The translations under genes were made by a program, and so were the position numbers. The notes under the pieces are model-generated. The model saw only the letters and a list, made by a program, of their open reading frames with translations. It did no database searches and was not told where the DNA came from. Shown here one piece after another: positions 465 through 12,498 of a DNA stretch of 64,000 bases. The DNA comes from Minisyncoccota bacterium (GTDB lineage Bacteria; Patescibacteriota; Minisyncoccia; Phycocordibacterales; UBA2100), in contig JALHPE010000001.1 of NCBI GenBank assembly GCA_022842645.1, positions 7,711 through 71,710 on the forward strand. Direction: 5' to 3'. The number at the start of each line of letters is the position of its first letter. Within the stretch, counting starts at the first letter, position 1.

Positions 465-1691
465 ATGGCAAAGCAAGTACGACCAGATGTGGAATCCTTT
501 GCGCGAATTCGTGTCGTTGGCGTTGGCGGCTCTGGTGGTAACACCATTAACCACATGGTCTCGTCGCATGTGATTGGCGTCGACTTTCTCGCAGTCAACA
601 CTGACGCACAGGATCTCGCAAAATCAAAAGCAAAACGCAAGATTCATATTGGTAGAAACCTTACACGCGGCCTCGGAACCGGCATGGATCCCGATTTGGG
701 AAAGCAAGCAGCTGAAGAGACACGCGAAGAGATCCAGGAAGCACTAAAAGGTTCTGACATGGTGTTTGTTACCTGCGGTATGGGCGGCGGCACTGGAACC
801 GGCGCAGCACCCGCTGTCGCAAAAATTGCACGTGAGCTTGGAGCCCTTACTGTCGGTGTTGTAACAAAGCCTTTTAGTTTTGAAGGCGCTCAACGCGGAC
901 GTCTTGCAGAGCAAGGTATTATGGAGCTCCGCAAATCAGTCGATGCAATCATCATCATTCCCAACGACAAACTCCTCTCCGTTGTCGCAAAAGAAACGGG
1001 CATTAAAAATGCGTTTGCGATGTGCGACGATATCCTGAAACAAGCTGTTGAGGGTATTTCAGATCTCATCACGACGACCGGTATCATCAACGTCGACTTT
1101 GCTGATGTACGTTCAATCATGCACAACGCTGGTTCCGCACTCATGGGTATCGGTATGGCAATCGGTGAGAAACGCGCAGAAACAGCCGCGCGTCTTGCCA
1201 TCAACTCCCCACTTCTTGAAGTGTCCATCAACGGCGCAAAGGGTGTACTCTTTTCTGTCGCAGGTGGTGATGATCTCTCTATGCTCGAAGTGCAAGAAGC
1301 GGCAAATGCGATTACTGAAGCTATTGACCCCGAGGCAAAGGTTATTTTTGGCGCCGTAACAGACGAAACTCTCAAGAAAGGACAAATCAAAGTTACTGTT
1401 ATCGCAACAGGATTCCCAGAAAATGTTGGCGGGCGTGTAGCATATCCGGCACAACCAATGCCTGCACGACTCGCAAAACGTGAGCCCGAAATGCCTCCAG
1501 TAAGAAAAATGGAGCAACCGACCCAAGCTCCTGCATCGACACCCATGCCAGCTCCTCAGATAATAAAAGAATCGACACCCCCCGTGAAAGATCAACAGAA
1601 ACCCCGCGAACTCGCGCCCCAACAAAAGCAGGATGTGAATGAAGAAGATGATATCTGGGGAGGCTTTCCTTCATTTCTTCGCAGGAAATAG
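465..1691 (+). CDS. ftsZ: Cell division GTPase FtsZ
   Basis: Tubulin/FtsZ signatures [14 protein letters not shown] and [10 protein letters not shown], and a C-terminal Pro/Gln-rich tail. The ORF track begins at 411; the ATG at 465 (MAKQVRPD...) gives a canonical N-terminus. Confidence 0.95.
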
Positions 1692-1771
1692 TCTGTAGAC
1701 TATAGTTTGTAGTCTGTAGTAAAATATAGAGACTTTTTGTTTACTACAAACTACAGTCTACACACTAAAAA
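1691..1771. repeat. Heptad-array palindromic element, copy 1: (NNNGTAG)x4, 25-nt spacer, (CTACNNN)x4, ending 3 nt before the trxB ATG
   Basis: Read directly: gtctgtag actatag tttgtag tctgtag, then a spacer, then ctacaaa ctacagt ctacaca ctaaaaa. The same architecture and long exact matches occur at 62150-62240 and 23488-23524. Confidence 0.6.
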
Positions 1772-1773
1772 CT

Positions 1774-2700
1774 ATGTATGATCTCGCAATTGTTGGTGGT
1801 GGCCCAGCTGGAATATCGGCGGCCGTCTACGCTGCGCGCAAGCGCCTTAAAACAGTGTTGATTACTGATGACTGGGGCGGGCAAAGCACGGTCTCCCCCG
1901 AAATTCAAAATTGGATCGGGGATCCTTCTATCTCTGGTGCTGATCTTGCAAAGAAACTTCGCGGACACGTCGAGAGTTATAAAGGCGAGTGGCTGGAAAT
2001 CGTCTCGCCCCACCGCGCACAAAGTGTTAAGGAAGTTGAAGGAGGTGTCGAAATTTCGTGCACCGATGGCTCAACGCACACTGCTCGCACACTCCTTGTC
2101 GCAAGCGGCTCAAATCGCCGTAAACTTGAGATCCCAGGTGCCAAAGAGTTTGATAACAAAGGCGTCACCTACTGCGCTTCATGTGATGGCCCTCTCTTTG
2201 CTGATATGGATGTTGCGGTAGTGGGAGGCGGAAACGCGGCATTTGAAACCGCTATGCAGCTCCTCGCATATTGCAAAAGTGTCTCGCTCTTTAATCGTTC
2301 CGATGTATTCCGCGCTGACGAGCTCACTGTCGAGAAGGTTTTGAAGCATCCAAAGATGAAAACGTTCACCAACACACAACTGGTTGCGATTGAGGGGGAA
2401 AAGTTCGTCTCTGGCCTGCGCTATAAAGACGCGAACAGTGCAGAGCAGGTACTCCCTGTTGCTGGCATCTTCGTAGAGATTGGACTCGTCCCTAACACTG
2501 CGTGGCTTGGGAGTATCGTAAAAATGAACGAATACAATCAAGTCATTGCCGACCCGTACACCCAGCGCACTTCACACTCTCGTCTCTGGGCAGCGGGAGA
2601 TTGTACCGACGGCAGATATCATCAAAACAACATCGCCGCCGGTGATGCTGTCAAAGCACTCGAAGACATTTACGCTTTTGTGCACAAAGAAAAGAATTAG
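1774..2700 (+). CDS. trxB: Thioredoxin-disulfide reductase
   Basis: FAD motif GGGPAG, redox-active CASCDG, NADPH motif GGGNAA. The 308-aa length fits low-molecular-weight TrxR. Confidence 0.85.
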   Translation: MYDLAIVGGGPAGISAAVYAARKRLKTVLITDDWGGQSTVSPEIQNWIGDPSISGADLAKKLRGHVESYKGEWLEIVSPHRAQSVKEVEGGVEISCTDGSTHTARTLLVASGSNRRKLEIPGAKEFDNKGVTYCASCDGPLFADMDVAVVGGGNAAFETAMQLLAYCKSVSLFNRSDVFRADELTVEKVLKHPKMKTFTNTQLVAIEGEKFVSGLRYKDANSAEQVLPVAGIFVEIGLVPNTAWLGSIVKMNEYNQVIADPYTQRTSHSRLWAAGDCTDGRYHQNNIAAGDAVKALEDIYAFVHKEKN

Positions 2701-2721
2701 ATTCTCCTGCTGAGATATGAG

Positions 2722-2756
2722 AAAAAAGACCCGGCTCTAAGGCCGGGTCTTTCGTT
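2722..2756. terminator. Bidirectional rho-independent terminator between trxB and the convergent channel gene
   Basis: GC hairpin agacccggc-tctaa-ggccgggtct, flanked by A-run and T-run. Confidence 0.6.
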
Positions 2757-3513
2757 ATCGTGAACTCATCAACTTTGTAAGTTCATCGATTTTATCTTCG
2801 AGACTTCGTAACCGTTCACTCGTTGTGTCTTCTTGCATGGCGTTCGCGGCAATACCTACGATCACACTCAGAAGGAGGAAGACTGTGGTCGCAATAAAGA
2901 ACACGAACAGAAGCCATGACCACGGATACACTTCCATGACAGGTCGAGCGACGTCAGACCATGCGTCAAGCGTCATAATCTGAAAGAACGTAAAGAGCGA
3001 TATGAAGAGGTTGCCGAACTTCTCAGGAAACGCTTGGCCAAACATCTGGGATGCCATCACTGCTGCAACATAGTGCAGTAAGACGAGTACGCCAAGTACA
3101 GCTGCGAATCCTCCTATGGCACGCCCAATGCCCGTAACCACATTGCGAAGTGCCGGTACAACAGAAACAAGTCGCAGCGCACGAAGAATACGCAGTGTTC
3201 GTAGTGCCGAGGCGTTTTCAACAAACGGCGCCATGGTCAGCGCGACGATGATGAAGTCGAACCAGTTCCAGCCCTGTTTCCAGTGGAAGAACGCTGCGCG
3301 GTGAACATAGATCCTAAGACTTAGTTCACCCACGAAAAAAACAATAAACGCGAGATCTATTGCGCGCAACAGCGTGCCGTGAGTTTGCATGACGCTGGGG
3401 AAAGTTTCTATTCCTAGCACAAGTGCGTTTAAACAAATCACGGTAATAACCGTTCGTTCAAAGCGCGGATCTTCAATTATCGCGGATATACGTGTAGTCA
3501 TGCGAATCTCCAT
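2755..3513 (-). CDS. Single-domain voltage-gated cation channel (NaChBac/NavAb-like)
   Basis: S4 voltage sensor LRTLRILRALRLV with Arg every third residue. Pore/selectivity filter FFQIMTLDAWSDV (TLxxWSx signature). Six predicted TM segments in 252 aa. Confidence 0.8.
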   Translation of the reverse strand: MEIRMTTRISAIIEDPRFERTVITVICLNALVLGIETFPSVMQTHGTLLRAIDLAFIVFFVGELSLRIYVHRAAFFHWKQGWNWFDFIIVALTMAPFVENASALRTLRILRALRLVSVVPALRNVVTGIGRAIGGFAAVLGVLVLLHYVAAVMASQMFGQAFPEKFGNLFISLFTFFQIMTLDAWSDVARPVMEVYPWSWLLFVFFIATTVFLLLSVIVGIAANAMQEDTTSERLRSLEDKIDELTKLMSSR

Positions 3514-3577
3514 TACCTGCTACCCCAATGGATATATCACGCGCGACCCGAATCTACAACGTATGTGATTGTGGGGG

Positions 3578-3604
3578 GTTATTTTGAGGAGAGGGAGAGA
3601 TTCG
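3578..3604. repeat. Direct duplicate of the 3' end of tRNA-Ser(CGA), copy at 3751-3777; inverted partial copy at 3695-3712
   Basis: ttattttgaGGAGAGGGAGAGATTCG here versus ttatttttgcGGAGAGGGAGAGATTCG at the true tRNA 3' end. The intervening 145 nt carry perfect hairpins (aattcttgtg..cacaagaatt and gcccaacacatgtgttgggc). Confidence 0.5.
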
Positions 3605-3759
3605 GTCACAAATAATTCTTGTGCCGACGCACAAGAATTTCCGCGACCCCGACTCGGCGACCCGCGTGCTCGCGGGTACCCCGCCTCCGTCTTTCGAATC
3701 TCCCCCTCTTCCTGCAAAAATATAGTCGCCCAACACATGTGTTGGGCTCGTTATTTTTG

Positions 3760-3844
3760 CGGAGAGGGAGAGATTCGAACTCTCGAGGCCTTGCGACCTG
3801 GCGGTTTTCGAAACCGCTCGTTTCAACCACTCACGCACCTCTCC
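3760..3844 (-). tRNA. tRNA-Ser (anticodon CGA), type II with long variable arm
   Basis: Folded by hand: acceptor GGAGAGG/CCTCTCC, D-stem CGT/ACG, anticodon stem GCGGT/ACCGC with loop TTCGAAA, variable arm AGGTC-GCAA-GGCCT, T-arm GAGAG-TTCGAAT-CTCTC, discriminator G. Confidence 0.85.
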
Positions 3845-4093
3845 GTAGGCACGATACTAACAGAACATAGGCCTTTTGCACACTTCAAGTTGTTTCCGAT
3901 GGTAAATCCATTTTTCCGGGATGAGAAGTAAGCGCCTCTAGAATGGCGCGACGCAACTTCTCTGCCCCGTCTTCAGGACGGGGTAAATGTTCAAAAGATT
4001 CTTTCACCTTTTAAGCATACCACGTCCTTTAATCCGCCCCCTCCCATACCCTCTTCATAAGTGCCAAAAAGTGTTGTAGTATGCGCCGCGTAA

Positions 4094-4165
4094 GGCCTCA
4101 TCGTCTAACGGCTAGGACAGCGCCTTTTCAAGGCGTTAATCGGGGTTCGATTCCCCGTGAGGTCA
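4094..4165 (+). tRNA. tRNA-Glu (anticodon TTC)
   Basis: Acceptor GGCCTCA/TGAGGTC, anticodon stem GCGCC/GGCGT with loop TTTTCAA, T-arm CGGGG-TTCGATT-CCCCG, 72 nt. Confidence 0.85.
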
Positions 4166-5870
4166 AAGACAGAGATTTATCAACCTTGAATTGTTCAGAA
4201 AGCCTGAAAATAGGCTGTAATTTTGGTGTTCCATTAAGGATTTCGTGGTAGGTTGGTGTTTTCTCAAAAAACAACGACATTAAAGCCCTTCGAGACTGTA
4301 AATCATCAGCCTTTTCGAGTATTTCAGCAGGGTGTTCCATTACGCGCTTTGCGTAACGAATAAAGCCCTTGATTCCTTTTTCGTTTACCTCAATCGTGCC
4401 ACGCTTACTCTCCGCATCTTTGATCTGTACGTCGAGCGCTTCAATCTCTCTTTCAAGCATCTTTCTCGTAATGATGCTTTCTGCAACTTCAAACGCTTTT
4501 AGTTTCTGGGCTTGCTCTGCCTTAAGTTCGCTTACACTCCTGCTGATTGCCGATGACATTTCAACAATGTCTTTCTCTTTCGAGCGATATTTGCGTACCA
4601 ACTTCTCTTCAAGTTTCTCCAAAAAACCCTTTTCAAAGCGAAGATTATCAATGTAGTTTTTAACACACTTCTCAAGATCTGCTTTTCTAACTCTGAATCC
4701 AGAGTGTGCTCGCTTTCCGTTTTTCACTCCTCCACAATGATACGCGGGAAAATGCTTACCTGACTTTCCGCGAGGTGCACTACCCAAAAGTTCCGAGGTG
4801 CAGAATGGGCAAGTAATCACTTTCCACGGATAGTCTGGATTGTTACGTAAACGTTTGGTTTTACCCCACGGAGAATAGTTATAAAGTACCTCCACGCTCC
4901 CATCCCCATGCTCCTTAACGAAAACTTTGCCGCGATTTGCTCGATTAAAAAGATCAACCGAAACCAGTCCATTGAATTCTCGTAGTCGTACTGGTTGATG
5001 CTTTGTCCACGACTCACAAACAATGCCTGCATATTCTGTTTGCGTAATACGTCTTTGTAATTGTTTAACAGTAAGTAATTTGCCGCCCTTCTTTCCAACT
5101 ACGGTCGGATGCTCTTTATTACTCCGATCCCAGCGTCGAGTCGTTAAGGTGCGATATCCCATTGCGTTTATGGTTTTAACAATCTCATTGTCATCAACGC
5201 CAGCCGCGCGCATCTCAAATATTTTTACCCAGTAATGTGATCGCTCTGGATCAGTCGCGCGAATCACACGGTCTTTTCCATCATAGAAAAATCGCTTATT
5301 AATCATTCCGTCTGGCGCACGACGAGTTGCCCATCCTTCTCTGGCATAGCGAATTTGTGCACCAATCATTCTCGTTAAAATCTGTCTTACTTCTTGCTCA
5401 CCATTATAGGCTGTTATCATTTCAGCCGATTCACTTGGGTAGTATTCACTCCACTTATATTTAACCCCAAGGTGTTCAAGTGTGTTACGTTCAGGCTGAA
5501 TTATTCCATATACGTCGCACATTTGAACACCTAATTCAGCAAGTTCGCGCTTCATCCTCTCGTAAACCACATAACCTGCCCTTGTTGCACGATCAATACA
5601 TTTGATAATGTATTTTTTAATGGGCTTATCAGTGTGTATTCGACTACGGATGTACATTTTTACTTCCTCAAAATCTTGTCTTTCTTTAGTGGTTCCGGAA
5701 TGCGGTTTCTTGAAAACCTCTGCAACGATCCAACCACTACGTTCGGCAAACTGTCTTCCAAGTTTTTCCTGATCATCCAAACTGTCGCCCTTAAGTTGGG
5801 AGGGGTCGCTTACACGGCAATCAATTACGCAGTATGTAGGTCTTTCAGTCATACTCCTACATTTTAACAA
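4128..5870 (-). CDS. Large serine recombinase (phage-type integrase)
   Basis: N-terminal resolvase catalytic domain (YCVIDCRVSDPSQ...DQ with the catalytic Ser, ...IDRATRAG), Cys-rich zinc-ribbon (CPFCTSELLG...HFPAYHCGG) and a C-terminal coiled-coil. The 3' end overlaps tRNA-Glu. Confidence 0.85.
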   Translation of the reverse strand: MLKCRSMTERPTYCVIDCRVSDPSQLKGDSLDDQEKLGRQFAERSGWIVAEVFKKPHSGTTKERQDFEEVKMYIRSRIHTDKPIKKYIIKCIDRATRAGYVVYERMKRELAELGVQMCDVYGIIQPERNTLEHLGVKYKWSEYYPSESAEMITAYNGEQEVRQILTRMIGAQIRYAREGWATRRAPDGMINKRFFYDGKDRVIRATDPERSHYWVKIFEMRAAGVDDNEIVKTINAMGYRTLTTRRWDRSNKEHPTVVGKKGGKLLTVKQLQRRITQTEYAGIVCESWTKHQPVRLREFNGLVSVDLFNRANRGKVFVKEHGDGSVEVLYNYSPWGKTKRLRNNPDYPWKVITCPFCTSELLGSAPRGKSGKHFPAYHCGGVKNGKRAHSGFRVRKADLEKCVKNYIDNLRFEKGFLEKLEEKLVRKYRSKEKDIVEMSSAISRSVSELKAEQAQKLKAFEVAESIITRKMLEREIEALDVQIKDAESKRGTIEVNEKGIKGFIRYAKRVMEHPAEILEKADDLQSRRALMSLFFEKTPTYHEILNGTPKLQPIFRLSEQFKVDKSLSLTSRGIEPRLTP

Positions 5871-6113
5871 CTTTTCTTCTTGTAGAAACTATATTCTTCT
5901 CACGAATCCACATATCTAACAGCGTATCTGCAAGATGATCTAACAATATATCCACATTAACATTTAAGTTGTTATCTGACGGATTAGATTTTGTAGCGGT
6001 CAACTGTTGGAGGAAGTTATCTTGACCCGAACTCATAAAGTTCAGGTTCGTGTGTTATGACTCGTTGCGCAAACGAATGTACAAGTTTCTAAAATTCAGT
6101 AAAAAATAAAAGT

Positions 6114-6169
6114 CGGCTATATAGCCGGATAATTTTTTTACGTTTTTTATGAAATCGGCTATATAGCCG
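6114..6169. repeat. Two copies of the perfect 14-bp palindrome cggctatatagccg (6114-6127 and 6156-6169), each followed by a T-run
   Basis: Read directly. They lie in the integrase upstream region of the element. Either tandem terminators or operator sites. Confidence 0.5.
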
Positions 6170-6484
6170 ACTTTTAACTTATCCCCAACATATGGACTTA
6201 TTCATGACAACACAAAGCGGAACCTTAACCGTCAAGAGTTGTTGTGTTGAGCGTACGAAGCAAGTAAACTGTCTACGTTCGCCCTCAAAGCGAACATTTC
6301 AAAACAAAGACCTAAACCCTCGCTTCGGCGGTGGCATGGTCTAAAAGTCGGATGGAGCGTAGGAACCCCGTCATGTGGTTGCTTCATCCGCCGTATCGGG
6401 AAACCGGTGCGTTCGCGTAAGCGAAGACCCGTGGCGGGTTTTGTGTTTTCTAAAATTCCGCCTTTACAAGAAAAGTGAACACAT

Positions 6485-6613
6485 ATGGACTACGATGATC
6501 TGACAAACGAAGTGGAAGAACTTAAAGCGCAAATCTATAAACTGCGTAGTGAATTAAACTTCTTTGCCACATGTTTTGGATTTGTAGTGCTTATGATCCT
6601 GATATGGAAATAA
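6485..6613 (+). CDS. Small hypothetical protein (43 aa) with a C-terminal transmembrane helix
   Basis: ATG..TAA ORF (MDYDDLTNEVEELKAQIYKLRSELNFFATCFGFVVLMILIWK) below the ORF-track cutoff and inside the mobile element. No homology support. Confidence 0.25.
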   Translation: MDYDDLTNEVEELKAQIYKLRSELNFFATCFGFVVLMILIWK

Positions 6614-6623
6614 CTAAACTCCT

Positions 6624-6866
6624 ATGCAATATCTAACCCTCACAATACTCGCAGTCGCTTTCTTTGCAGGGCAAGCGTTTTTAACTCTCACTCTCCAACA
6701 AAAAGAAAGTAACGAGGAGTTTGCAAAACACGTTCAAGAAAAGATCTTTGATGATTGTTTCGACTACTACGCGGCAACCTCACGAGAAAGAGGTATTGAT
6801 AAAACCACAATTCAGACATGCGTAGACAAGACGAGCGATTGGATGAAGTCTATAAACAATCTGTAA
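6624..6866 (+). CDS. Hypothetical small secreted protein (80 aa, N-terminal signal-like helix)
   Basis: ORF-track ORF; hydrophobic N-terminus LTLTILAVAFFAGQAF. Confidence 0.4.
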   Translation: MQYLTLTILAVAFFAGQAFLTLTLQQKESNEEFAKHVQEKIFDDCFDYYAATSRERGIDKTTIQTCVDKTSDWMKSINNL

Positions 6867-6889
6867 ATTTATTCCGCGCGGAATGAGAA

Positions 6890-7276
6890 TTAAGCAAACT
6901 CGGCTTTATCCTCCTCGGCAGGTTCCAACATTTTTGACTGCAACATATCAAGCCGCTCCTGTGCGAGAGTGAGTTCAAACCCTCGCGCATTCCTCCCAAA
7001 TTCGTCTGGACAGCGTTTTTCCAAGTATCGCATGGCAAGATGCGGGTCTCGCTCTAAATTGTCTACAACGGTCTTTTTTGCCTTTAAAATGGGGTTCAGT
7101 TTCCACCTCGCTTTTTGCTCCACAAAGTCTGGGGTTGCCGTCTGATAGTTATACAGCGTTTGTGGTGCAATTTTGGCTGAATTACAGGCTTCTTCGTCTG
7201 TTGCCCCTATCTGAAAAGCGTCTTCGAGTTTTTGGAGTACGCGAGGAGTGATTTTTTTGGGTCTGCCGAGTGTCAT
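6890..7276 (-). CDS. Phage-like HTH DNA-binding protein (terminase-small-subunit-like N-terminus)
   Basis: N-terminus MTLGRPKKITPRVLQKLEDAFQIGATDEEAC resembles the GRPxKYTPE HTH of phage TerS/Nu1-like proteins. Acidic C-terminus. Confidence 0.4.
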   Translation of the reverse strand: MTLGRPKKITPRVLQKLEDAFQIGATDEEACNSAKIAPQTLYNYQTATPDFVEQKARWKLNPILKAKKTVVDNLERDPHLAMRYLEKRCPDEFGRNARGFELTLAQERLDMLQSKMLEPAEEDKAEFA

Positions 7277-7311
7277 ATCACTATTTTACCGGAAATAAAC
7301 ACGCTGATACA

Positions 7312-8598
7312 ATGCTGTCCAATCTACCCACCATGTCTGGATTCCTGAAAACACGAGAAGTCTTTGAAGAAACGTATCGCGTTGACGATTTGTTGGATTT
7401 TTCGAGTGAAATCAATCGTCTTGATTCGGTAATTCAGCAAGCACCTTACTCGGCGTTGGTTGGATACGTGGGACGTTTTGGCTCTGGAAAGAGCACGGCT
7501 ATTTACCAATTGCGTAAACAGTATGAGCAAGCAAAAAAATCTAAGTGGTTTGAGTTTGATGCATGGAAATATCCCGAACGTCGTGATCTGTGGGAGGGCT
7601 TTGTACTCGATATCGCAGATCAAATGGGGAGCAGAAAGAGAGTGAAGAAGCAGATTGACGGCGATACGAAAACATCGAAAACAGTTGGTGCGATCTCTGA
7701 AATCGCACAAGGGCTTGCCGCTTTCACTGGTCTTTCCTACCTCGTCAGCAAATTTGCACACCTATTCGATAAACAACCCATTGAGCGCGTTTTTGAGTTG
7801 CAAGAGATCCTTGTTGCGATGTTCGGCGCAGTAAAAGAAAAAGACATTTTCATTGTGGTCGAGGATATAGATCGATCAGGTGATGCGGGGCAATATTTCC
7901 TGGAAACACTGCGGCAATTTATTAAGAATAACCTCGCTGAAAAGCGCATCGTTATTCTCGTGCCTATCGGCTCAGAAATTTACGACAAAGAAGACGATCT
8001 TCACGACTCCTTGCAAAAAGTACTCGATTACCAGGTGCATTTTGAACCTCGGTCGGTGAAATACTCAAAGTTCCTGGATTATTTTGATGAAAGTACGTTT
8101 CCTGCAACTCACACCGTGCAAGCGAACGTGCAGGATAAATCTCTTTGGCGAGAGCATATTGAAGACTGGTTTGCTCTTGCGGCTCGTAATGGTCTAAACA
8201 TACGAAAGATTAAATCCGCTGTTCGTGAAGCAAACGCCGCCTTTATTGATCTCCGAGCAAAAGAATTTAAACCCGATCCTCGAATTGTACTCGCAATCAC
8301 TCTGCTTAATTATGTTTACACAGAAGGAAAGAAACGATGGGTAACGCGACTTGAAACCAAGCATGATATTACGAGTAATTGTCCTATTTATAATTATCTG
8401 CAAGTTGTCGCGCGTAACCAGCGACTGTCAGAATACCCAGGGCACTGGAGACCAGGAGCAACGCATTTTGTTGAGGATCGAGAGTTAATCCTTCCGGCGT
8501 ATGTGACTGATTCTAGAGCGCCGAACGGAGAGCCGACAGGAAGATTTTGGCTCTCGGATTTTTACTTAATTCCCTTTGGTAGAAATACCCAAGGATAG
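7312..8598 (+). CDS. KAP-family P-loop NTPase
   Basis: Walker A GRFGSGKST followed by the KAP-diagnostic FEFDAWKYPERRDLWEGF, and Walker B IVVEDIDR. The ORF track starts at a GTG at 7270, overlapping the upstream gene; the ATG at 7312 is preferred. Confidence 0.75.
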   Translation: MLSNLPTMSGFLKTREVFEETYRVDDLLDFSSEINRLDSVIQQAPYSALVGYVGRFGSGKSTAIYQLRKQYEQAKKSKWFEFDAWKYPERRDLWEGFVLDIADQMGSRKRVKKQIDGDTKTSKTVGAISEIAQGLAAFTGLSYLVSKFAHLFDKQPIERVFELQEILVAMFGAVKEKDIFIVVEDIDRSGDAGQYFLETLRQFIKNNLAEKRIVILVPIGSEIYDKEDDLHDSLQKVLDYQVHFEPRSVKYSKFLDYFDESTFPATHTVQANVQDKSLWREHIEDWFALAARNGLNIRKIKSAVREANAAFIDLRAKEFKPDPRIVLAITLLNYVYTEGKKRWVTRLETKHDITSNCPIYNYLQVVARNQRLSEYPGHWRPGATHFVEDRELILPAYVTDSRAPNGEPTGRFWLSDFYLIPFGRNTQG

Positions 8599-8794
8599 TA
8601 GATAATATAGTTCGATAGATCATTGGGTACATAAAATTCAGTGCTTCTATTGCTCAAATACCTTGTTTTATGTGACAAATTCAGTACCCGATGATCCAAT
8701 ACGTACAAGGCTAAATACCTGATTCCAGTGCAAAACAGTATTTTCTATAGTGTTCCAGTCAAAGTACAATGGGCTCAAATCGAACGAAGTGAGG

Positions 8795-8811
8795 TTTGAC
8801 CTCACGGGGAA
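8795..8811. repeat. Inverted exact 17-nt copy of the tRNA-Glu 3' end, within hairpin gtgaggtttgacctcac
   Basis: tttgacctcacggggaa is the reverse complement of ttccccgtgaggtcaaa at 4151-4167. Candidate distal boundary of the integrated element. Confidence 0.5.
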
Positions 8812-8846
8812 GAAAGGGGTCGGGAAAACATTCTGTTTTCCCGTGG
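8812..8846. repeat. Hairpin motif GAAAGGGGTCGGGAAAAC-N4-GTTTTCCCGTG (second copy at 23754-23786)
   Basis: Near-identical 33-35 nt hairpins at two unrelated loci. Confidence 0.5.
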
Positions 8847-8865
8847 AGGAAGGATTGGGAAAACC

Positions 8866-9645
8866 GTGGGTTTCCCAGAACCCCGTTGTGGTCAAAATTC
8901 ATGCCGATGCCTTAACGCCTGGTACAATGTCTCCATGCGAGAAAAGATACAAGTACCGTCGTCTGCTGAATCCTCCGAAGTCACGGTACCGCTGGCAGAG
9001 GACAAGATTCTTCACCGACTTCACCAATGCACAAACCCCGGCGCAAATTGCTCGCCCGAAGATGAGGAAGAACTACAGAAAGACCTTGAACGCTGTGAGG
9101 TTTTCGAGATGTACAATGCCTATATCGAGAGTCGTGTACCAACCCTCCCTCTCTTGGGGAAGAACATCACTGACTTAATCGAAAGAATCCCCAATAAACT
9201 ACGCAATGACCCAGAAACAATTTCTATTGTTAATTATTTGAAGGGGCGACACGCGTCGATTGGTCACGATCTCCGAGCTTATGTTACGCTTGTTATTAGA
9301 TTTGTAACGCTTGAGCAATCAACTCTGAGATTCAGAGATTATGAAAAATACATCGATCAAATAAAAAAAGTTGACGCTGATCGCCGAAGAATGCACGACA
9401 ACCTCTTAGCTTCCTTGGATATGCTCCGCCAAAAAATGGAAGAGGTGTATGATTTGGGATTGTGCGAGAAGAATGATTTTTATGTTTGGTCGCCAGGTGA
9501 GACACGTGAGATTCCCATAAACGCAGTGCCGGTTTTCGCCTCCACAGCAATTGCGAATCGAGACCTTATTAAAAATTGGGCGCTTGCCGCGGACTTTGCA
9601 GAACATTTTGAGAAACTATCGCAACTGCTGGCAGAAAAAAAATAG
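8866..9645 (+). CDS. Hypothetical protein (259 aa); alternative start at 8935 (MREKIQ...)
   Basis: Long ORF with no recognisable motif; followed by a hairpin terminator. Confidence 0.45.
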   Translation: MGFPEPRCGQNSCRCLNAWYNVSMREKIQVPSSAESSEVTVPLAEDKILHRLHQCTNPGANCSPEDEEELQKDLERCEVFEMYNAYIESRVPTLPLLGKNITDLIERIPNKLRNDPETISIVNYLKGRHASIGHDLRAYVTLVIRFVTLEQSTLRFRDYEKYIDQIKKVDADRRRMHDNLLASLDMLRQKMEEVYDLGLCEKNDFYVWSPGETREIPINAVPVFASTAIANRDLIKNWALAADFAEHFEKLSQLLAEKK

Positions 9646-9668
9646 GCATCCTGTGGTTACAGGACGCC
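9645..9668. terminator. Hairpin ggcatcctgt-ggtt-acaggacgcc between convergent genes
   Basis: Stem-loop directly after the stop of the 8866-9645 ORF, preceded by an A-run. Confidence 0.45.
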
Positions 9669-9955
9669 TACTGATTGGCTCGATTTGCCTCTGCTTTTAC
9701 GACAATACAGTAGCAGAGCTTGAGAGCAAACGCCGCATACGCAAGATCGTCATCAGGTAGTGCCAGCGCACTGCGGTGTGATCGCAAAAGATCATAGAGA
9801 TCCTTGCAACGAACATCCGTCCGAACTATTTCTGCTTGCTCATGAGGGTTGTATCCATGCAAAGCTTCACAAGAAGGCAAAACAAGACTGAGAATGTGCG
9901 TTGCTTCTTGCGGATGCGTTTGTGTAAATTTTTTCCAACGACGGAGCTGGCTCAT
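9668..9955 (-). CDS. Hypothetical protein (95 aa)
   Basis: ORF only. Confidence 0.3.
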   Translation of the reverse strand: MSQLRRWKKFTQTHPQEATHILSLVLPSCEALHGYNPHEQAEIVRTDVRCKDLYDLLRSHRSALALPDDDLAYAAFALKLCYCIVVKAEANRANQ

Positions 9956-9999
9956 GTGCCACCTTCCTTTCCTACTGCACTATAACACAGATGTACAAT

Positions 10000-10620
10000 T
10001 TATGCAAAACTTTTTTCGCTCCCTACTGAAATCACCCCCTCCCGCAACACCTGAATATTTCCCTCACTCACATCCACAATCGTCGAAGGCAATCGCTCCG
10101 GAAGCTCACCCGCATCAATCACAAGGTCGATGAGCTTGGCTCGCGCACCCAGTTGCGCGAGTATTTTCTCCGGAGAGCGGTCTGGTTGCATGCCCGCAAG
10201 ATTGGCGCTCGTCGTCGTATAGGGTCGCCCAAACGCACGCGCCAGCTCGAGACAAAATTGAGTGTCTGGCATGCGGAATCCGAATTCATCCCTTCCCTCG
10301 CACATTGCAATAACCGCATCGGCACGCTTTCGGAGAATGAGCGTGAGCGGCCCCGGCATATACGCACTCGCGAGCGCAAGCGCCATCTCGTTCACTTCCC
10401 CATACTCGGCCGCCATGTGTAAATCGGCGACAATAGCGTGTATAGGCTTTCCCTCTTCTCGTCCCTTAATTTCTCGCACTTTTGCAAGTGCCTCATTCGA
10501 AAGCGCATCTGCACCCAGGCCATACAGAGTGTCTGTGGGATACAAAACAACACCTCCACTACGAAGAGCTGTGACACTCTTCGTGATTGCTTCCGGACTC
10601 TTTATGGAGATGATTTCCAT
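10000..10620 (-). CDS. tsaC: L-threonylcarbamoyladenylate synthase (TsaC/YrdC/Sua5 family)
   Basis: YrdC fold signature LYPTDTLYGLGADA. The 206-aa length fits the single-domain TsaC. Confidence 0.85.
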   Translation of the reverse strand: MEIISIKSPEAITKSVTALRSGGVVLYPTDTLYGLGADALSNEALAKVREIKGREEGKPIHAIVADLHMAAEYGEVNEMALALASAYMPGPLTLILRKRADAVIAMCEGRDEFGFRMPDTQFCLELARAFGRPYTTTSANLAGMQPDRSPEKILAQLGARAKLIDLVIDAGELPERLPSTIVDVSEGNIQVLREGVISVGSEKSFA

Positions 10621-10623
10621 CGG

Positions 10624-10695
10624 TGCGCGCTGAGGGGATCGAACCCCCGACCCTCTTCACGTCAAGAAGATGCTCTACCACTGAGCTAAGCGCGC
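10624..10695 (-). tRNA. tRNA-Val (anticodon GAC)
   Basis: Acceptor GCGCGCT/AGCGCGC, anticodon loop TTGACGT, T-arm GGGGG-TTCGATC-CCCCT, discriminator A. Confidence 0.85.
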
Positions 10696-10725
10696 TTGCG
10701 GCCGAGTATAGCAGAAACCGGTATT

Positions 10726-12498
10726 TTATTCATCCTGCAGGAACCCTCCCGCTTGATGTTGCCAGAGCGTGGCGTAGAGCCCTCTTTTCGCGAGAAGTTC
10801 TTGGTGTGTCCCCTCTTCCGCAATTCGTCCATCATCAAGAGCGATGATGCGATCCATTTTCATGATGGTCGAAAGACGATGCGCGATAACCAGTACCGTC
10901 TTCCCACTCATGAGCTTTGCAAGTGCATCTTGAATTAAAACCTCTGACGCTGAATCCAGGCTCGCCGTTGCCTCATCGAGAATAAGAATCGGGGCGTTTT
11001 TAAGGATTGCACGCGCAATCGCGACGCGCTGACGCTCGCCCCCAGAAAGCTTCACACCACGCTCGCCCACATACGTCTCATACCCATGAGGAAGTGCTGC
11101 GATAAATTCATGACAATGCGCCTTCTTCGCGGCGGCGATTACCTCTTCATCACGTGCATCACGGTTGCCGTAGCGAATATTTTCCATGAGGGTACGATGA
11201 AAAAGAATCGGCTCTTGCGGCACAAAACCTATCGCGCTCCGCAAACTTTCTTGTGTCACCGCCGCAATGCTCTGCCCGTCAATCTCGATACTGCCCGATT
11301 TCACGTCGAAAAGGCGCAGGATGATTTTGGTAATGGTGGATTTCCCAGCACCCGAAGGTCCGACGAATGCTACCTTCTCGCCACCTCGAATCGTCAGATT
11401 AAAATCTGTAAAGATGGCGCGCTCGGAGTGAAAGGTGAAATCAACATTCTTAAATTCGATAAGGCCCTTTGAGACACGAAGCGGTTGGGAACCGGGAATG
11501 TCGCGAATTTCGTGCTCTGTTGCCAAAAGCTCCGACATTTCTGCAGCGTCCGCAAGCGCATCGTAAAATCCGCGAAGCTGAAACGCGATACTGCTCAAAA
11601 GCCCGAACGTCCCTACAAGATAGGTTTGTATGAGGACAAAATCTCCTATAGTAAGCTCGCCCCGTTGCCAAAAAATCACCGCCCCGTAAAGGAGTCCGAC
11701 GTTAATAGAAACCATAAGGAGTCCCTGAACACCCCAAATCGTCGTCATGATAAACCACGCCTTCCATTGCGCGTCACTCCAAGTCTCAACAAGTCGTGAG
11801 AAACGTTTTTCTTCGTGCCTCTCTCCAGAAAATAAGGTGACTGCATTTTGATTACCGATCACATCCGAAAGCCCCCCAACCATCTTGCTGTCGGCCTCGG
11901 AACGAAGGAGACGATAGGGACGATGAAAACGAGACAGTACTATTTGAACGATAATAAAAAGTACCGTCCACAGGGCGAGCACGATACCGAGCGTGCGATT
12001 GTGTGTGAAAAGAATTCCCGCCGCACCGACCACAAACACCGCCGCGGGGAGAAAGGAAGTCATGGCGGTATCAAAAATGGTCTCAAACGCGCCCGCATAT
12101 TTACTGACGCGACGAGTAAGGGTGCCACTAAACTGCGATGCGAAAAATGTATGCGAATGCCGGATAAGATATTCAAATGAAGCGCGATAGAGCTGCGCCA
12201 TGGCACGGTTCTCTATCACCATTTGCGCGAGCGCGCTTATGCGTCCGAAAAGCCACTGGAGGAAATAAATACCAGCAATGATGCTGACAACACCCAGAAT
12301 GTACTCCACGAGCTGAGTACTCCTGTCACTTGATGCGAGCGCATTGAAAATTTCACGCAAATAGAGCGGTGCTATTAATCCGGCAACCTGAAATGCAACT
12401 TGCCCCACGATGACCACAAAAAGCATCCATGGTGAATGAAGTGCCTCACGCACGTATGCTCGCGGAATATATCCGTCACGCCGCCGAGGGGATTGCAT
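10726..12498 (-). CDS. ABC transporter, fused permease/ATP-binding protein (MsbA/exporter type)
   Basis: Six-TM permease domain, Walker A GPSGAGKST, ABC signature LSGGERQRVAIARA, Walker B ILILDEATASLD. The start at 12498 is chosen to avoid overlap with divergent tsaD; the ORF track extends to 12585. Confidence 0.9.
   Translation of the reverse strand: MQSPRRRDGYIPRAYVREALHSPWMLFVVIVGQVAFQVAGLIAPLYLREIFNALASSDRSTQLVEYILGVVSIIAGIYFLQWLFGRISALAQMVIENRAMAQLYRASFEYLIRHSHTFFASQFSGTLTRRVSKYAGAFETIFDTAMTSFLPAAVFVVGAAGILFTHNRTLGIVLALWTVLFIIVQIVLSRFHRPYRLLRSEADSKMVGGLSDVIGNQNAVTLFSGERHEEKRFSRLVETWSDAQWKAWFIMTTIWGVQGLLMVSINVGLLYGAVIFWQRGELTIGDFVLIQTYLVGTFGLLSSIAFQLRGFYDALADAAEMSELLATEHEIRDIPGSQPLRVSKGLIEFKNVDFTFHSERAIFTDFNLTIRGGEKVAFVGPSGAGKSTITKIILRLFDVKSGSIEIDGQSIAAVTQESLRSAIGFVPQEPILFHRTLMENIRYGNRDARDEEVIAAAKKAHCHEFIAALPHGYETYVGERGVKLSGGERQRVAIARAILKNAPILILDEATASLDSASEVLIQDALAKLMSGKTVLVIAHRLSTIMKMDRIIALDDGRIAEEGTHQELLAKRGLYATLWQHQAGGFLQDE

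Follow-up and report, generated by a model that had tools for sequence, protein, structure and literature searches.

A KAP-family NTPase as exchangeable, candidate defence cargo of a tRNA-Glu-targeting serine-recombinase island in Patescibacteria

A role of KAP-family P-loop NTPases in conflict was proposed twenty years ago; according to the family description of 2004, many but not all of the prokaryotic members carry transmembrane helices within the P-loop domain. In 2026, EF_KAP and three gut-metagenome proteins, all of them single-gene KAP NTPases whose C-terminal regions are unrelated and of unknown function, were found to protect E. faecalis from phages (PMC13552941). Protection by EF_KAP required both the Walker B motif and the C-terminal region and was equal at a multiplicity of infection (MOI) of 1 and of 10 (PMC13552941). 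Here we describe a KAP NTPase gene in a 64,000-nucleotide stretch of DNA (the window; GenBank assembly GCA_022842645.1, contig JALHPE010000001.1, positions 7,711 to 71,710 of the forward strand) from a Minisyncoccota bacterium of the Patescibacteriota. An earlier model-made reading of the sequence, hereafter the original prediction, had presented the open reading frame (ORF) at 7270-8598 as the cargo of an integrase-bearing, tRNA-targeting island and as a candidate defence gene, and had held that no characterised defence system of exactly this composition was known; the 2026 study makes this last statement outdated. Our analysis indicates that the gene is, with high probability, an exchangeable cargo in the defence slot of a mobile island and, on balance, probably a defence cargo that acts as an NTP-dependent switch.

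The EF_KAP group was compared with the window KAP protein by description and not by sequence. Both consist of one polypeptide in which the KAP NTPase domain is followed by a region without a known domain or structural relative, and both are encoded on a mobile island in linkage with a serine recombinase. EF_KAP carries two transmembrane helices and a C-terminal region of 322 amino acids (aa), whereas the window protein is soluble and ends in an orphan C-terminal domain of ~100 aa. The EF_KAP group lies beside small serine recombinases in Firmicutes, whereas the window gene accompanies a 574-aa large tRNA-targeting integrase in a Patescibacteria lineage; with its Resolvase, Recombinase and weak zinc-ribbon domains, this integrase is not of the small resolvase/invertase type.

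Three further systems share the KAP-type ATPase with the window protein. PifA, the membrane-associated protein of F-plasmid exclusion of phage T7, has a PADLOC model that is matched by all 77 family members compared (best E=1.3e-12), but the window protein aligns only to positions 37-129 of its 720 positions (E=8e-6), without similarity elsewhere in the protein, and PifA is much longer. QatA models are matched by 58 of the 77 (best E=9.6e-11), whereas for the window protein PADLOC gives E=0.02 and NCBIfam 15 bits where 600 are required; no QatB, QueC-like QatC or TatD-like QatD was detected among the island ORFs with Pfam and PADLOC. PDC-S20, a single-gene KAP-like PADLOC candidate of similar length (464-position model), is matched by 56 of the 77 (best E=1.4e-12), and the window protein aligns to its positions 13-192 (E=6e-6) with the C-terminal half unmatched; a literature search found no paper validating PDC-S20. 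Judged by these profiles, the window protein is neither PifA nor part of a Qat system, nor demonstrably PDC-S20. Its distinguishing features are its solubility, small size, orphan C-terminal fold, large serine recombinase partner and Patescibacteria host range.

The ORF at 7270-8598 on the forward strand, open from a GTG codon at 7270, is uninterrupted and is a real KAP NTPase gene. The Pfam family KAP_NTPase (PF07693) matches residues 48-206 of the 442-aa ORF with 31.8 bits against a gathering cut-off of 20 (E=1.2e-7), and a precomputed PF07693 hit is found on nearly every listed homologue. The Walker A (GRFGSGKST) and FDAWKY (FEFDAWKYPER) motifs, on which the original prediction based its family assignment, are joined by a Walker B motif of the KAP type (IVVEDIDRSGD), and the protein is thus a KAP NTPase by every sequence criterion tested. 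The reading frame stands as predicted, with the exception of its start, which is probably ATG 7333 and not GTG 7270, because an identical protein (P0001) has 421 aa in public assemblies, all 76 aligned homologues begin at MSGF(L/I)K, and a promoter-like site compatible with this start lies at 7285-7313 (TTTACC, a 17-nucleotide (nt) spacer and TACAAT with a preceding TG). The KAP-family P-loop NTPase would accordingly occupy 7333..8598 on the forward strand, an assignment based on the profile match, the alignment and an AlphaFold2 model.

In the numbering of the 421-aa protein, Walker A spans residues 47-55, FDAWKY residues 75-80, a disordered variable insert residues 112-146 and the Walker B EDIDR residues 177-181, followed by lid helices and the orphan C-terminal domain at residues ~326-421. 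Across 77 sequences, the invariant columns are G47, G50, G52, K53 and S54 in Walker A; F75, W78, P81, R83 and W87 around FDAWKY; E177, D178, D180, R181, S182 and G186 in the Walker B region; K229; and, in the lid helices, a basic triad, R291/K294/R298. Mean pairwise identity is 52-58% in two core segments and falls to 22% in the insert and 19% in the C-terminal 96 residues (326-421); the core is conserved and these two peripheral parts evolve fast. The insert occupies the position of the membrane helices in many KAP proteins. No transmembrane helix was found in the window protein, in which the highest 19-residue Kyte-Doolittle mean (1.39) is that of the Walker B strand. The window protein is soluble, and the membrane-linked character that had been associated with it does not apply.

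The AlphaFold2 model of the KAP protein is confident (predicted local distance difference test, pLDDT, 88.8; predicted template modelling score 0.84), with residues 112-146 disordered (pLDDT ~43). A Foldseek comparison of the whole model with the PDB returned ORC/Cdc6, the RADAR RdrA rings, CED-4, TnsC and the N-terminal part of BrxC, with E values of 1e-6 to 1e-4 (7e-7 to 1e-5 for RdrA and ORC/Cdc6) and TM-scores of 0.3-0.45. In the model, the NTPase core is an AAA+/STAND-like base with a helical lid. RdrA and the ORC/Cdc6-type ATPases are the closest solved folds, with the same P-loop base and helical lid, and by analogy suggest nucleotide-dependent formation of a ring or oligomer; with identities of 10-16% at these TM-scores and no RdrB-like deaminase partner, the likeness is one of structure and not of family membership. 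The R/K/R triad lies at the start of a lid helix, where it would serve as a nucleotide sensor and not as the catalytic site of an effector. When modelled separately, the C-terminal 167 aa reach a pLDDT of 93.3, and they have no Pfam match, no sequence match in the PDB and no fold match in the PDB or BFVD; a word-indexed search using the C-terminal profile was uninformative, as it yielded one fragment only. The original prediction had asked for an examination of this C-terminal part, and nothing found there points to a non-defence function.

The island context of the KAP gene is set by a tRNA-Glu(UUC) gene at 4094..4165 on the forward strand (ARAGORN; Rfam tRNA 60.4 bits), the integration target. 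The 574-aa large serine recombinase is encoded at 4128..5852 on the reverse strand, its last 13 codons antisense to the tRNA; it matches Pfam Resolvase with 26.9 bits (cut-off 23.3), Recombinase with 21.6 bits (cut-off 21.1) and the phrog_95 integrase with E=4e-24, with Zn_ribbon_recom below its cut-off, and has more than 460 homologues at E<=1e-30. In the window and in six distinct islands at other loci (L004, L005/L013, L059, L060 and L062/L064), the recombinase gene overlaps the 3' end of tRNA-Glu. The recombinases of L059, L060 (Vogelbacteria) and L062/L064 are ~60% identical to that of the window and those of L005/L013 (Kaiserbacteria) 50%, and L004 retains a 203-aa remnant. The chromosomal neighbourhood of the window is kept in L059 and L062, where trxB and tRNA-Val flank the site on opposite sides; further shared genes are ftsA-ftsZ, tsaD and valS in L059, and sua5 and an ABC-transporter gene in L062. 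The tRNA-Glu site is therefore a conserved hotspot.

The cargo differs between these islands; of the six besides that of the window, three have a KAP homologue and three have other genes. KAP NTPases are carried by the window, L004 and L005; L059 (5481-10771) holds a type II restriction-modification (RM) pair (MTase_II 9e-130, REase_II 2e-73), L060 (~900-10744) PDC-S06 with DUF4238, and L062 (~4300-10747) an Old-family nuclease. The KAP gene is absent from the syntenic loci of related genomes. Since sister islands with the same recombinase family differ in their cargo in this way, the KAP gene very probably is an exchangeable cargo of the island, and this comparison provides the strongest evidence for it; the island and its cargo, as originally predicted, are strengthened by the type II RM, Old and PDC-S06 with DUF4238 genes of the sister islands. 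Copper/metal-type genes (CsoR-like, DUF305) are also present in L060 and L062. A prophage reading, raised by a Baseplate_J gene near the L005 homologue, was rejected; this gene lies across tRNA-Glu, outside the island.

The boundaries of the island can be modelled from repeats of the tRNA end. The proposed right attachment site (8783..8811) contains the heptamer GTGAGGT at 8789-8795, which is also present in the tRNA 3' end at 4157-4163 as the proposed left core, together with a perfect 17-nt inverted copy of the tRNA-Glu end (8795-8811 against 4151-4167), the sole such match in the locus. When joined, the outer halves give TTCCCCGTGAGGT-TTG-ACCTCACGGGGAA, a perfect palindrome with 13-bp arms, and a serine recombinase dimer binds dyads of such a kind. 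The predicted junctions are GGTTCGATTCCCCGTGAGGTTTGACCTCACGGGGAAGAAAGG for the empty attB and AAATCGAACGAAGTGAGGTCAAAGACAGAGATTTATCAACC for the circular attP. A Logan contig from another sample begins at window position 8793, which hints at a branch point there. The exact attachment sites and the span of ~4164-8795 are a model derived from these sequences. An invertible segment between the 17-nt inverted repeats was also considered and is not favoured, because the recombinase and KAP genes have the same orientation in each of the three islands with a KAP gene. Between the proposed right end and sua5, a region of low G+C at 8935-9955 holds a 236-aa ORF on the forward and a 95-aa ORF on the reverse strand, for which Pfam, PADLOC, NCBIfam and PHROGs give no family match. 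The two ORFs could be left over from an older insertion, or the island itself could in truth extend as far as ~9960.

In a full HMMER search of 1.84 billion representatives, the KAP family proved rare: 249 clusters reached E<=1e-30, and nearly all of them are 400-450 aa long and align over their full length. A GTDB scan yielded 39 loci, most of them in diverse Patescibacteria and the others in Zixibacteria, Gammaproteobacteria, Bdellovibrionales, Bacteroidota and further groups; the distribution is patchy, and the family is concentrated in the ultra-small episymbiotic Patescibacteria.

Genes were called in all loci and the neighbours clustered, and the 217 proteins within 3 kb of 41 non-redundant KAP genes were compared with Pfam and PADLOC; the resulting enrichment for defence genes is a qualitative one. 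Type I RM components are represented by Methylase_S (HsdS, six times), HsdR domains (four) and N6_Mtase (HsdM, four), and OLD-type ATPases by AAA_21 (five) and AAA_15 (three). Eco57I occurs three times, and GmrSD/HEC-06, Shedu SduA_C, RhuM, Fic, Bro-N, HNH and Resolvase twice each; serine/tyrosine recombinases, FRG-TPR proteins and the PADLOC candidates PDC-S13, PDC-S15 and PDC-S04 recur. tRNA genes abut many of the loci, and in L006 the KAP gene adjoins tRNA-Lys and is flanked by two tyrosine integrases. The tally proposed in the original prediction thus finds the homologues not in housekeeping contexts only but near RM, OLD-type, GmrSD and Shedu genes, recombinases and tRNAs, and such defence-rich neighbourhoods support the candidate defence function put forward there. 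A conserved partner gene was not found across the family by neighbour clustering; a 399-aa hydrolase-like neighbour is confined to three loci whose adjacent KAP paralogues are longer.

Several KAP homologues are embedded in type I RM operons. hsdS and hsdR flank the KAP gene in L033, L035, L039 and L045, where it abuts or overlaps hsdR (and in L033 also hsdS); in L037 and L044 it lies 3' of hsdS. PrrC also occupies a slot in a type I RM operon. The known defence genes TgvAB and RloF are likewise embedded in type I RM clusters (PMC11411939), and some of the KAP homologues share this operon slot with the PrrC/Rlo and TgvAB genes; with PrrC, the position is all that is shared. The window KAP gene, unlike PrrC and TgvAB, is outside an RM operon and its product has no anticodon-nuclease or GmrSD domain; the PADLOC PrrC model gave no hit in this protein or in any of the 77 family members. 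A further arrangement is found in L012 (226-1306, 8587-11350, 17023-18546), a 47-kb contig on which two full-length KAP paralogues stand in tandem, with a third at a distance of ~5.7 kb and two fragments of KAP genes, interleaved with two GmrSD genes, two FRG-TPR genes, a pentapeptide-repeat protein gene and an Imm_superinfect-like gene. L012 is a dense conflict island with a paralogue expansion of the KAP family.

Based on these observations, we propose that the large serine recombinase inserted its own mobile island, ~4.6 kb in length (about 4164-8795), next to tRNA-Glu(UUC) at the 3' end. The backbone of the island would comprise the recombinase with the small ORF upstream of it, the operator-like region and a LOOT RNA, with the KAP gene as the last and exchangeable part. 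The KAP protein would act as a soluble single-chain NTPase switch that binds and hydrolyses NTP and changes its oligomeric state, as likened to its AAA+/STAND-like relatives, and the disordered insert and the orphan C-terminal domain would recognise a phage-derived cue or target. In this way the KAP protein alone, dependent on NTP hydrolysis, would protect the host, and thereby the island, against phages or other invading DNA. Because no nuclease, TIR, protease or pore domain is detectable in the protein, we favour a mode in which the protein, driven by NTP, binds or remodels a nucleoprotein or protein complex of the phage, over enzymatic destruction. Anti-phage defence is well supported by the context, from which we infer defence by the window protein itself; any specific molecular target is proposed with much lower confidence. 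The most specific form of this proposal is tentative: a self-contained immune NTPase without an effector domain, in which a new C-terminal fold and the disordered insert sense phages and an NTP-driven assembly blocks infection. Such an assembly-based mode has not been described for KAP proteins.

Several points weigh against this reading. The defence role of the KAP family is drawn from context, no effector domain was found in the window protein, and its similarity to PifA, QatA and PDC-S20 is weak and confined to the N-terminal P-loop. In structure it comes closest to replication initiators and a transposition ATPase, a resemblance that would also suit a role in DNA transactions of the element itself. 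The attachment sites were reconstructed from the window locus alone: the predicted empty site, TTCCCCGTGAGGT-N2-6-ACCTCACGGGGAA, was not found in JGI metagenomes, syntenic genomes hold a different island at the site instead of an empty one, and the far ends of the sister islands L013, L004, L059, L060 and L062 lack a convincing repeat of the tRNA end (in L013 there is only a gapped, weak direct resemblance, 30 bp past the KAP stop codon). No relative of the KAP family was detected in IMG/VR, and hence no phage-side counterpart, nor was one of the recombinase or a match to a LOOT sequence pattern; these scans require exact peptide or DNA words and are weak negative evidence. Some homologue neighbourhoods are purely housekeeping (Clp protease, pyruvate kinase, TGT, GrpE/Hsp70); housekeeping genes among the neighbours are expected for small islands in genomes of 0.5-1 Mb. 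An ordinary housekeeping or orphan NTPase that happens to lie in a low-GC patch and has no conflict role, which such neighbourhoods would fit, is nevertheless extremely unlikely: the family is very small and patchily distributed, its genes are repeatedly found beside tRNAs, recombinases and restriction systems, and the syntenic loci of related genomes carry no KAP gene.

The fold matches to ORC/Cdc6 and TnsC also raise the question of whether the KAP NTPase works for the mobile element: an ATPase resembling ORC/Cdc6, TnsC or IstB could aid the recombinase in DNA choice or loading, or could replicate or partition the excised circle. Within the closest clade (window, L004 and L005), the KAP gene always travels with the same recombinase and LOOT, which speaks for such a role. 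However, sister islands with the same recombinase and tRNA have RM, Old or PDC-S06 genes instead of KAP, most KAP homologues have no recombinase nearby and several are inside type I RM operons, and the sequence motifs are those of KAP and not of the initiator or IstB clades. A service role of this kind is therefore regarded as improbable.

An abortive-infection, toxic or addiction module, in which the activated NTPase depletes NTP or blocks an essential host process and so kills the infected or island-losing cell, is a different way of accounting for a protein with no visible effector domain, since the NTPase itself could be the effector. The P-loop defence protein Tmn has been reported to act via ATP hydrolysis (cited in PMC13552941), and the divergent helix-turn-helix (HTH) neighbour of the KAP gene could be a repressor or an antitoxin-like regulator. 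Against this, the equal protection at both MOIs was observed with EF_KAP, the sole KAP defence so tested, and the family has no conserved partner gene. We consider this module unlikely and retain defence by an NTP-dependent switch as the preferred reading.

LOOT (Rfam RF03000) is a structured RNA, found at 6309..6425 on the forward strand as a full-length match with 76.1 bits against a gathering threshold of 46.4, and a terminator-like hairpin follows at 6424-6442. Further copies, all on the reverse strand, were found in L004 (7802-7930), L005 (7796-7914), L013 (9787-9905), L062 (6838-6959) and L064 (3866-3987), with scores of 59-79 bits; besides the window, four of the six distinct sister islands thus carry LOOT, with KAP or Old cargo. 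At the gathering threshold it is absent from ~35 other KAP loci and from L059 and L060. Since LOOT is present in KAP and Old islands alike and not in these other KAP loci, it appears to track the island backbone and not the KAP gene. It is always placed at the 5' end of a run of genes on the same strand, and the three copies that were aligned fold alike, 14 of the 43 predicted pairs showing compensatory changes. LOOT may act as the regulatory RNA of a family of serine-recombinase islands that is specific for tRNA-Glu and carries defence cargo from one Patescibacteria genome to another.

The region between the recombinase gene and the KAP gene holds the remaining parts of the island, which stands out by a G+C content of 0.39-0.45 over ~4000-9500 against ~0.50 in the flanks. 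Directly upstream of the recombinase gene and in the same operon is a 59-aa ORF (5857..6036, reverse strand), which is also called as a gene in independent assemblies and has no family match in Pfam or PHROGs; it could be an excision or directionality factor, and in L005 a 74-aa gene occupies its position. Two exact copies of the 14-bp palindrome CGGCTATATAGCCG, at 6113-6126 and 6156-6169, lie 43 bp apart within a perfect 21-nt inverted repeat (6107..6176) and look like operators of a divergent control region between the recombinase operon and the operon of LOOT and small ORFs. The latter comprises, on the forward strand, a 42-aa ORF (6485..6613) with a C-terminal and an 80-aa ORF (6624..6866) with an N-terminal hydrophobic segment, both without a family match. 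They had been described as two tiny membrane ORFs of 43 and 80 aa, which agrees with the one hydrophobic segment in each and with the length of the second, the first being one residue shorter.

The phage-like HTH neighbour named in the original prediction is a 128-aa protein (6890..7276, reverse strand), divergent from the KAP gene, which resembles the N-terminal domain of small terminases (phrog_4102, E=6e-16; phrog_309, E=4e-5) and has no Pfam hit. It is probably a regulator or directionality factor, and in L032 a relative of 77 aa is encoded upstream of the KAP gene. The small-terminase match, together with the tRNA-located integrase, the divergent control region and the small ORFs, would also be expected of a miniature phage satellite, similar to a phage-inducible chromosomal island, that hijacks a helper phage through this protein and uses KAP as a helper-interference gene. 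Yet the match is limited to the HTH-containing N-terminal part, and an island of ~4.6 kb without replication, primase or capsid-remodelling genes is far below the known size of satellites; the exact-word scans of IMG/VR also came back empty for the KAP protein, the recombinase and the LOOT motif. A satellite is accordingly very unlikely.

A few observations at other positions and loci are recorded in their own right. In the window, the 3' end of tRNA-Ser(CGA) is directly repeated over 23 nt (22/23 identical) at 3582-3604 and 3755-3777, 173 bp from the tRNA, and may be the scar of an earlier integration and excision at that tRNA; several Logan contigs from other samples stop exactly at the tRNA-Ser boundary, at window position 3844. 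In L004, the locus of the closest non-identical homologue, the KAP stop codon is overlapped over 8 nt by a 385-aa ORF (9277-10434), an arrangement suggestive of an operon; Pfam gives no match for this ORF and PADLOC only a marginal one (E2, E=3e-4), and no equivalent follows the window KAP gene. On the 220-kb contig of L010 (700-2010, 7290-7950, 9280-9340), a KAP homologue is found in a run of MazG-like, RadC, N6/N4 methylase, DEAD/ResIII helicase, nucleotidyltransferase, SNase, ThyA and QueC genes, separated by repeated intergenic modules of 50-214 nt that include 40-nt perfect palindromes, suggesting a cassette-like array downstream of tRNA-Glu. In L014, a Nomurabacteria contig, a group I intron (Rfam RF00028, 83.7 bits) lies at 7712-7973 on the forward strand, ~200 bp upstream of the KAP homologue.

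No current idea is overturned by these findings. Patescibacteria have tiny genomes and do not grow alone, and little is therefore known of their resistance to phages. The KAP family described here is compact and soluble, and its confident model makes it ready for biochemistry. LOOT RNA gains a genomic home. The island family combines a fixed integration site with interchangeable defence cargo, and its recombinase could be used as bait for further defence genes of Patescibacteria.

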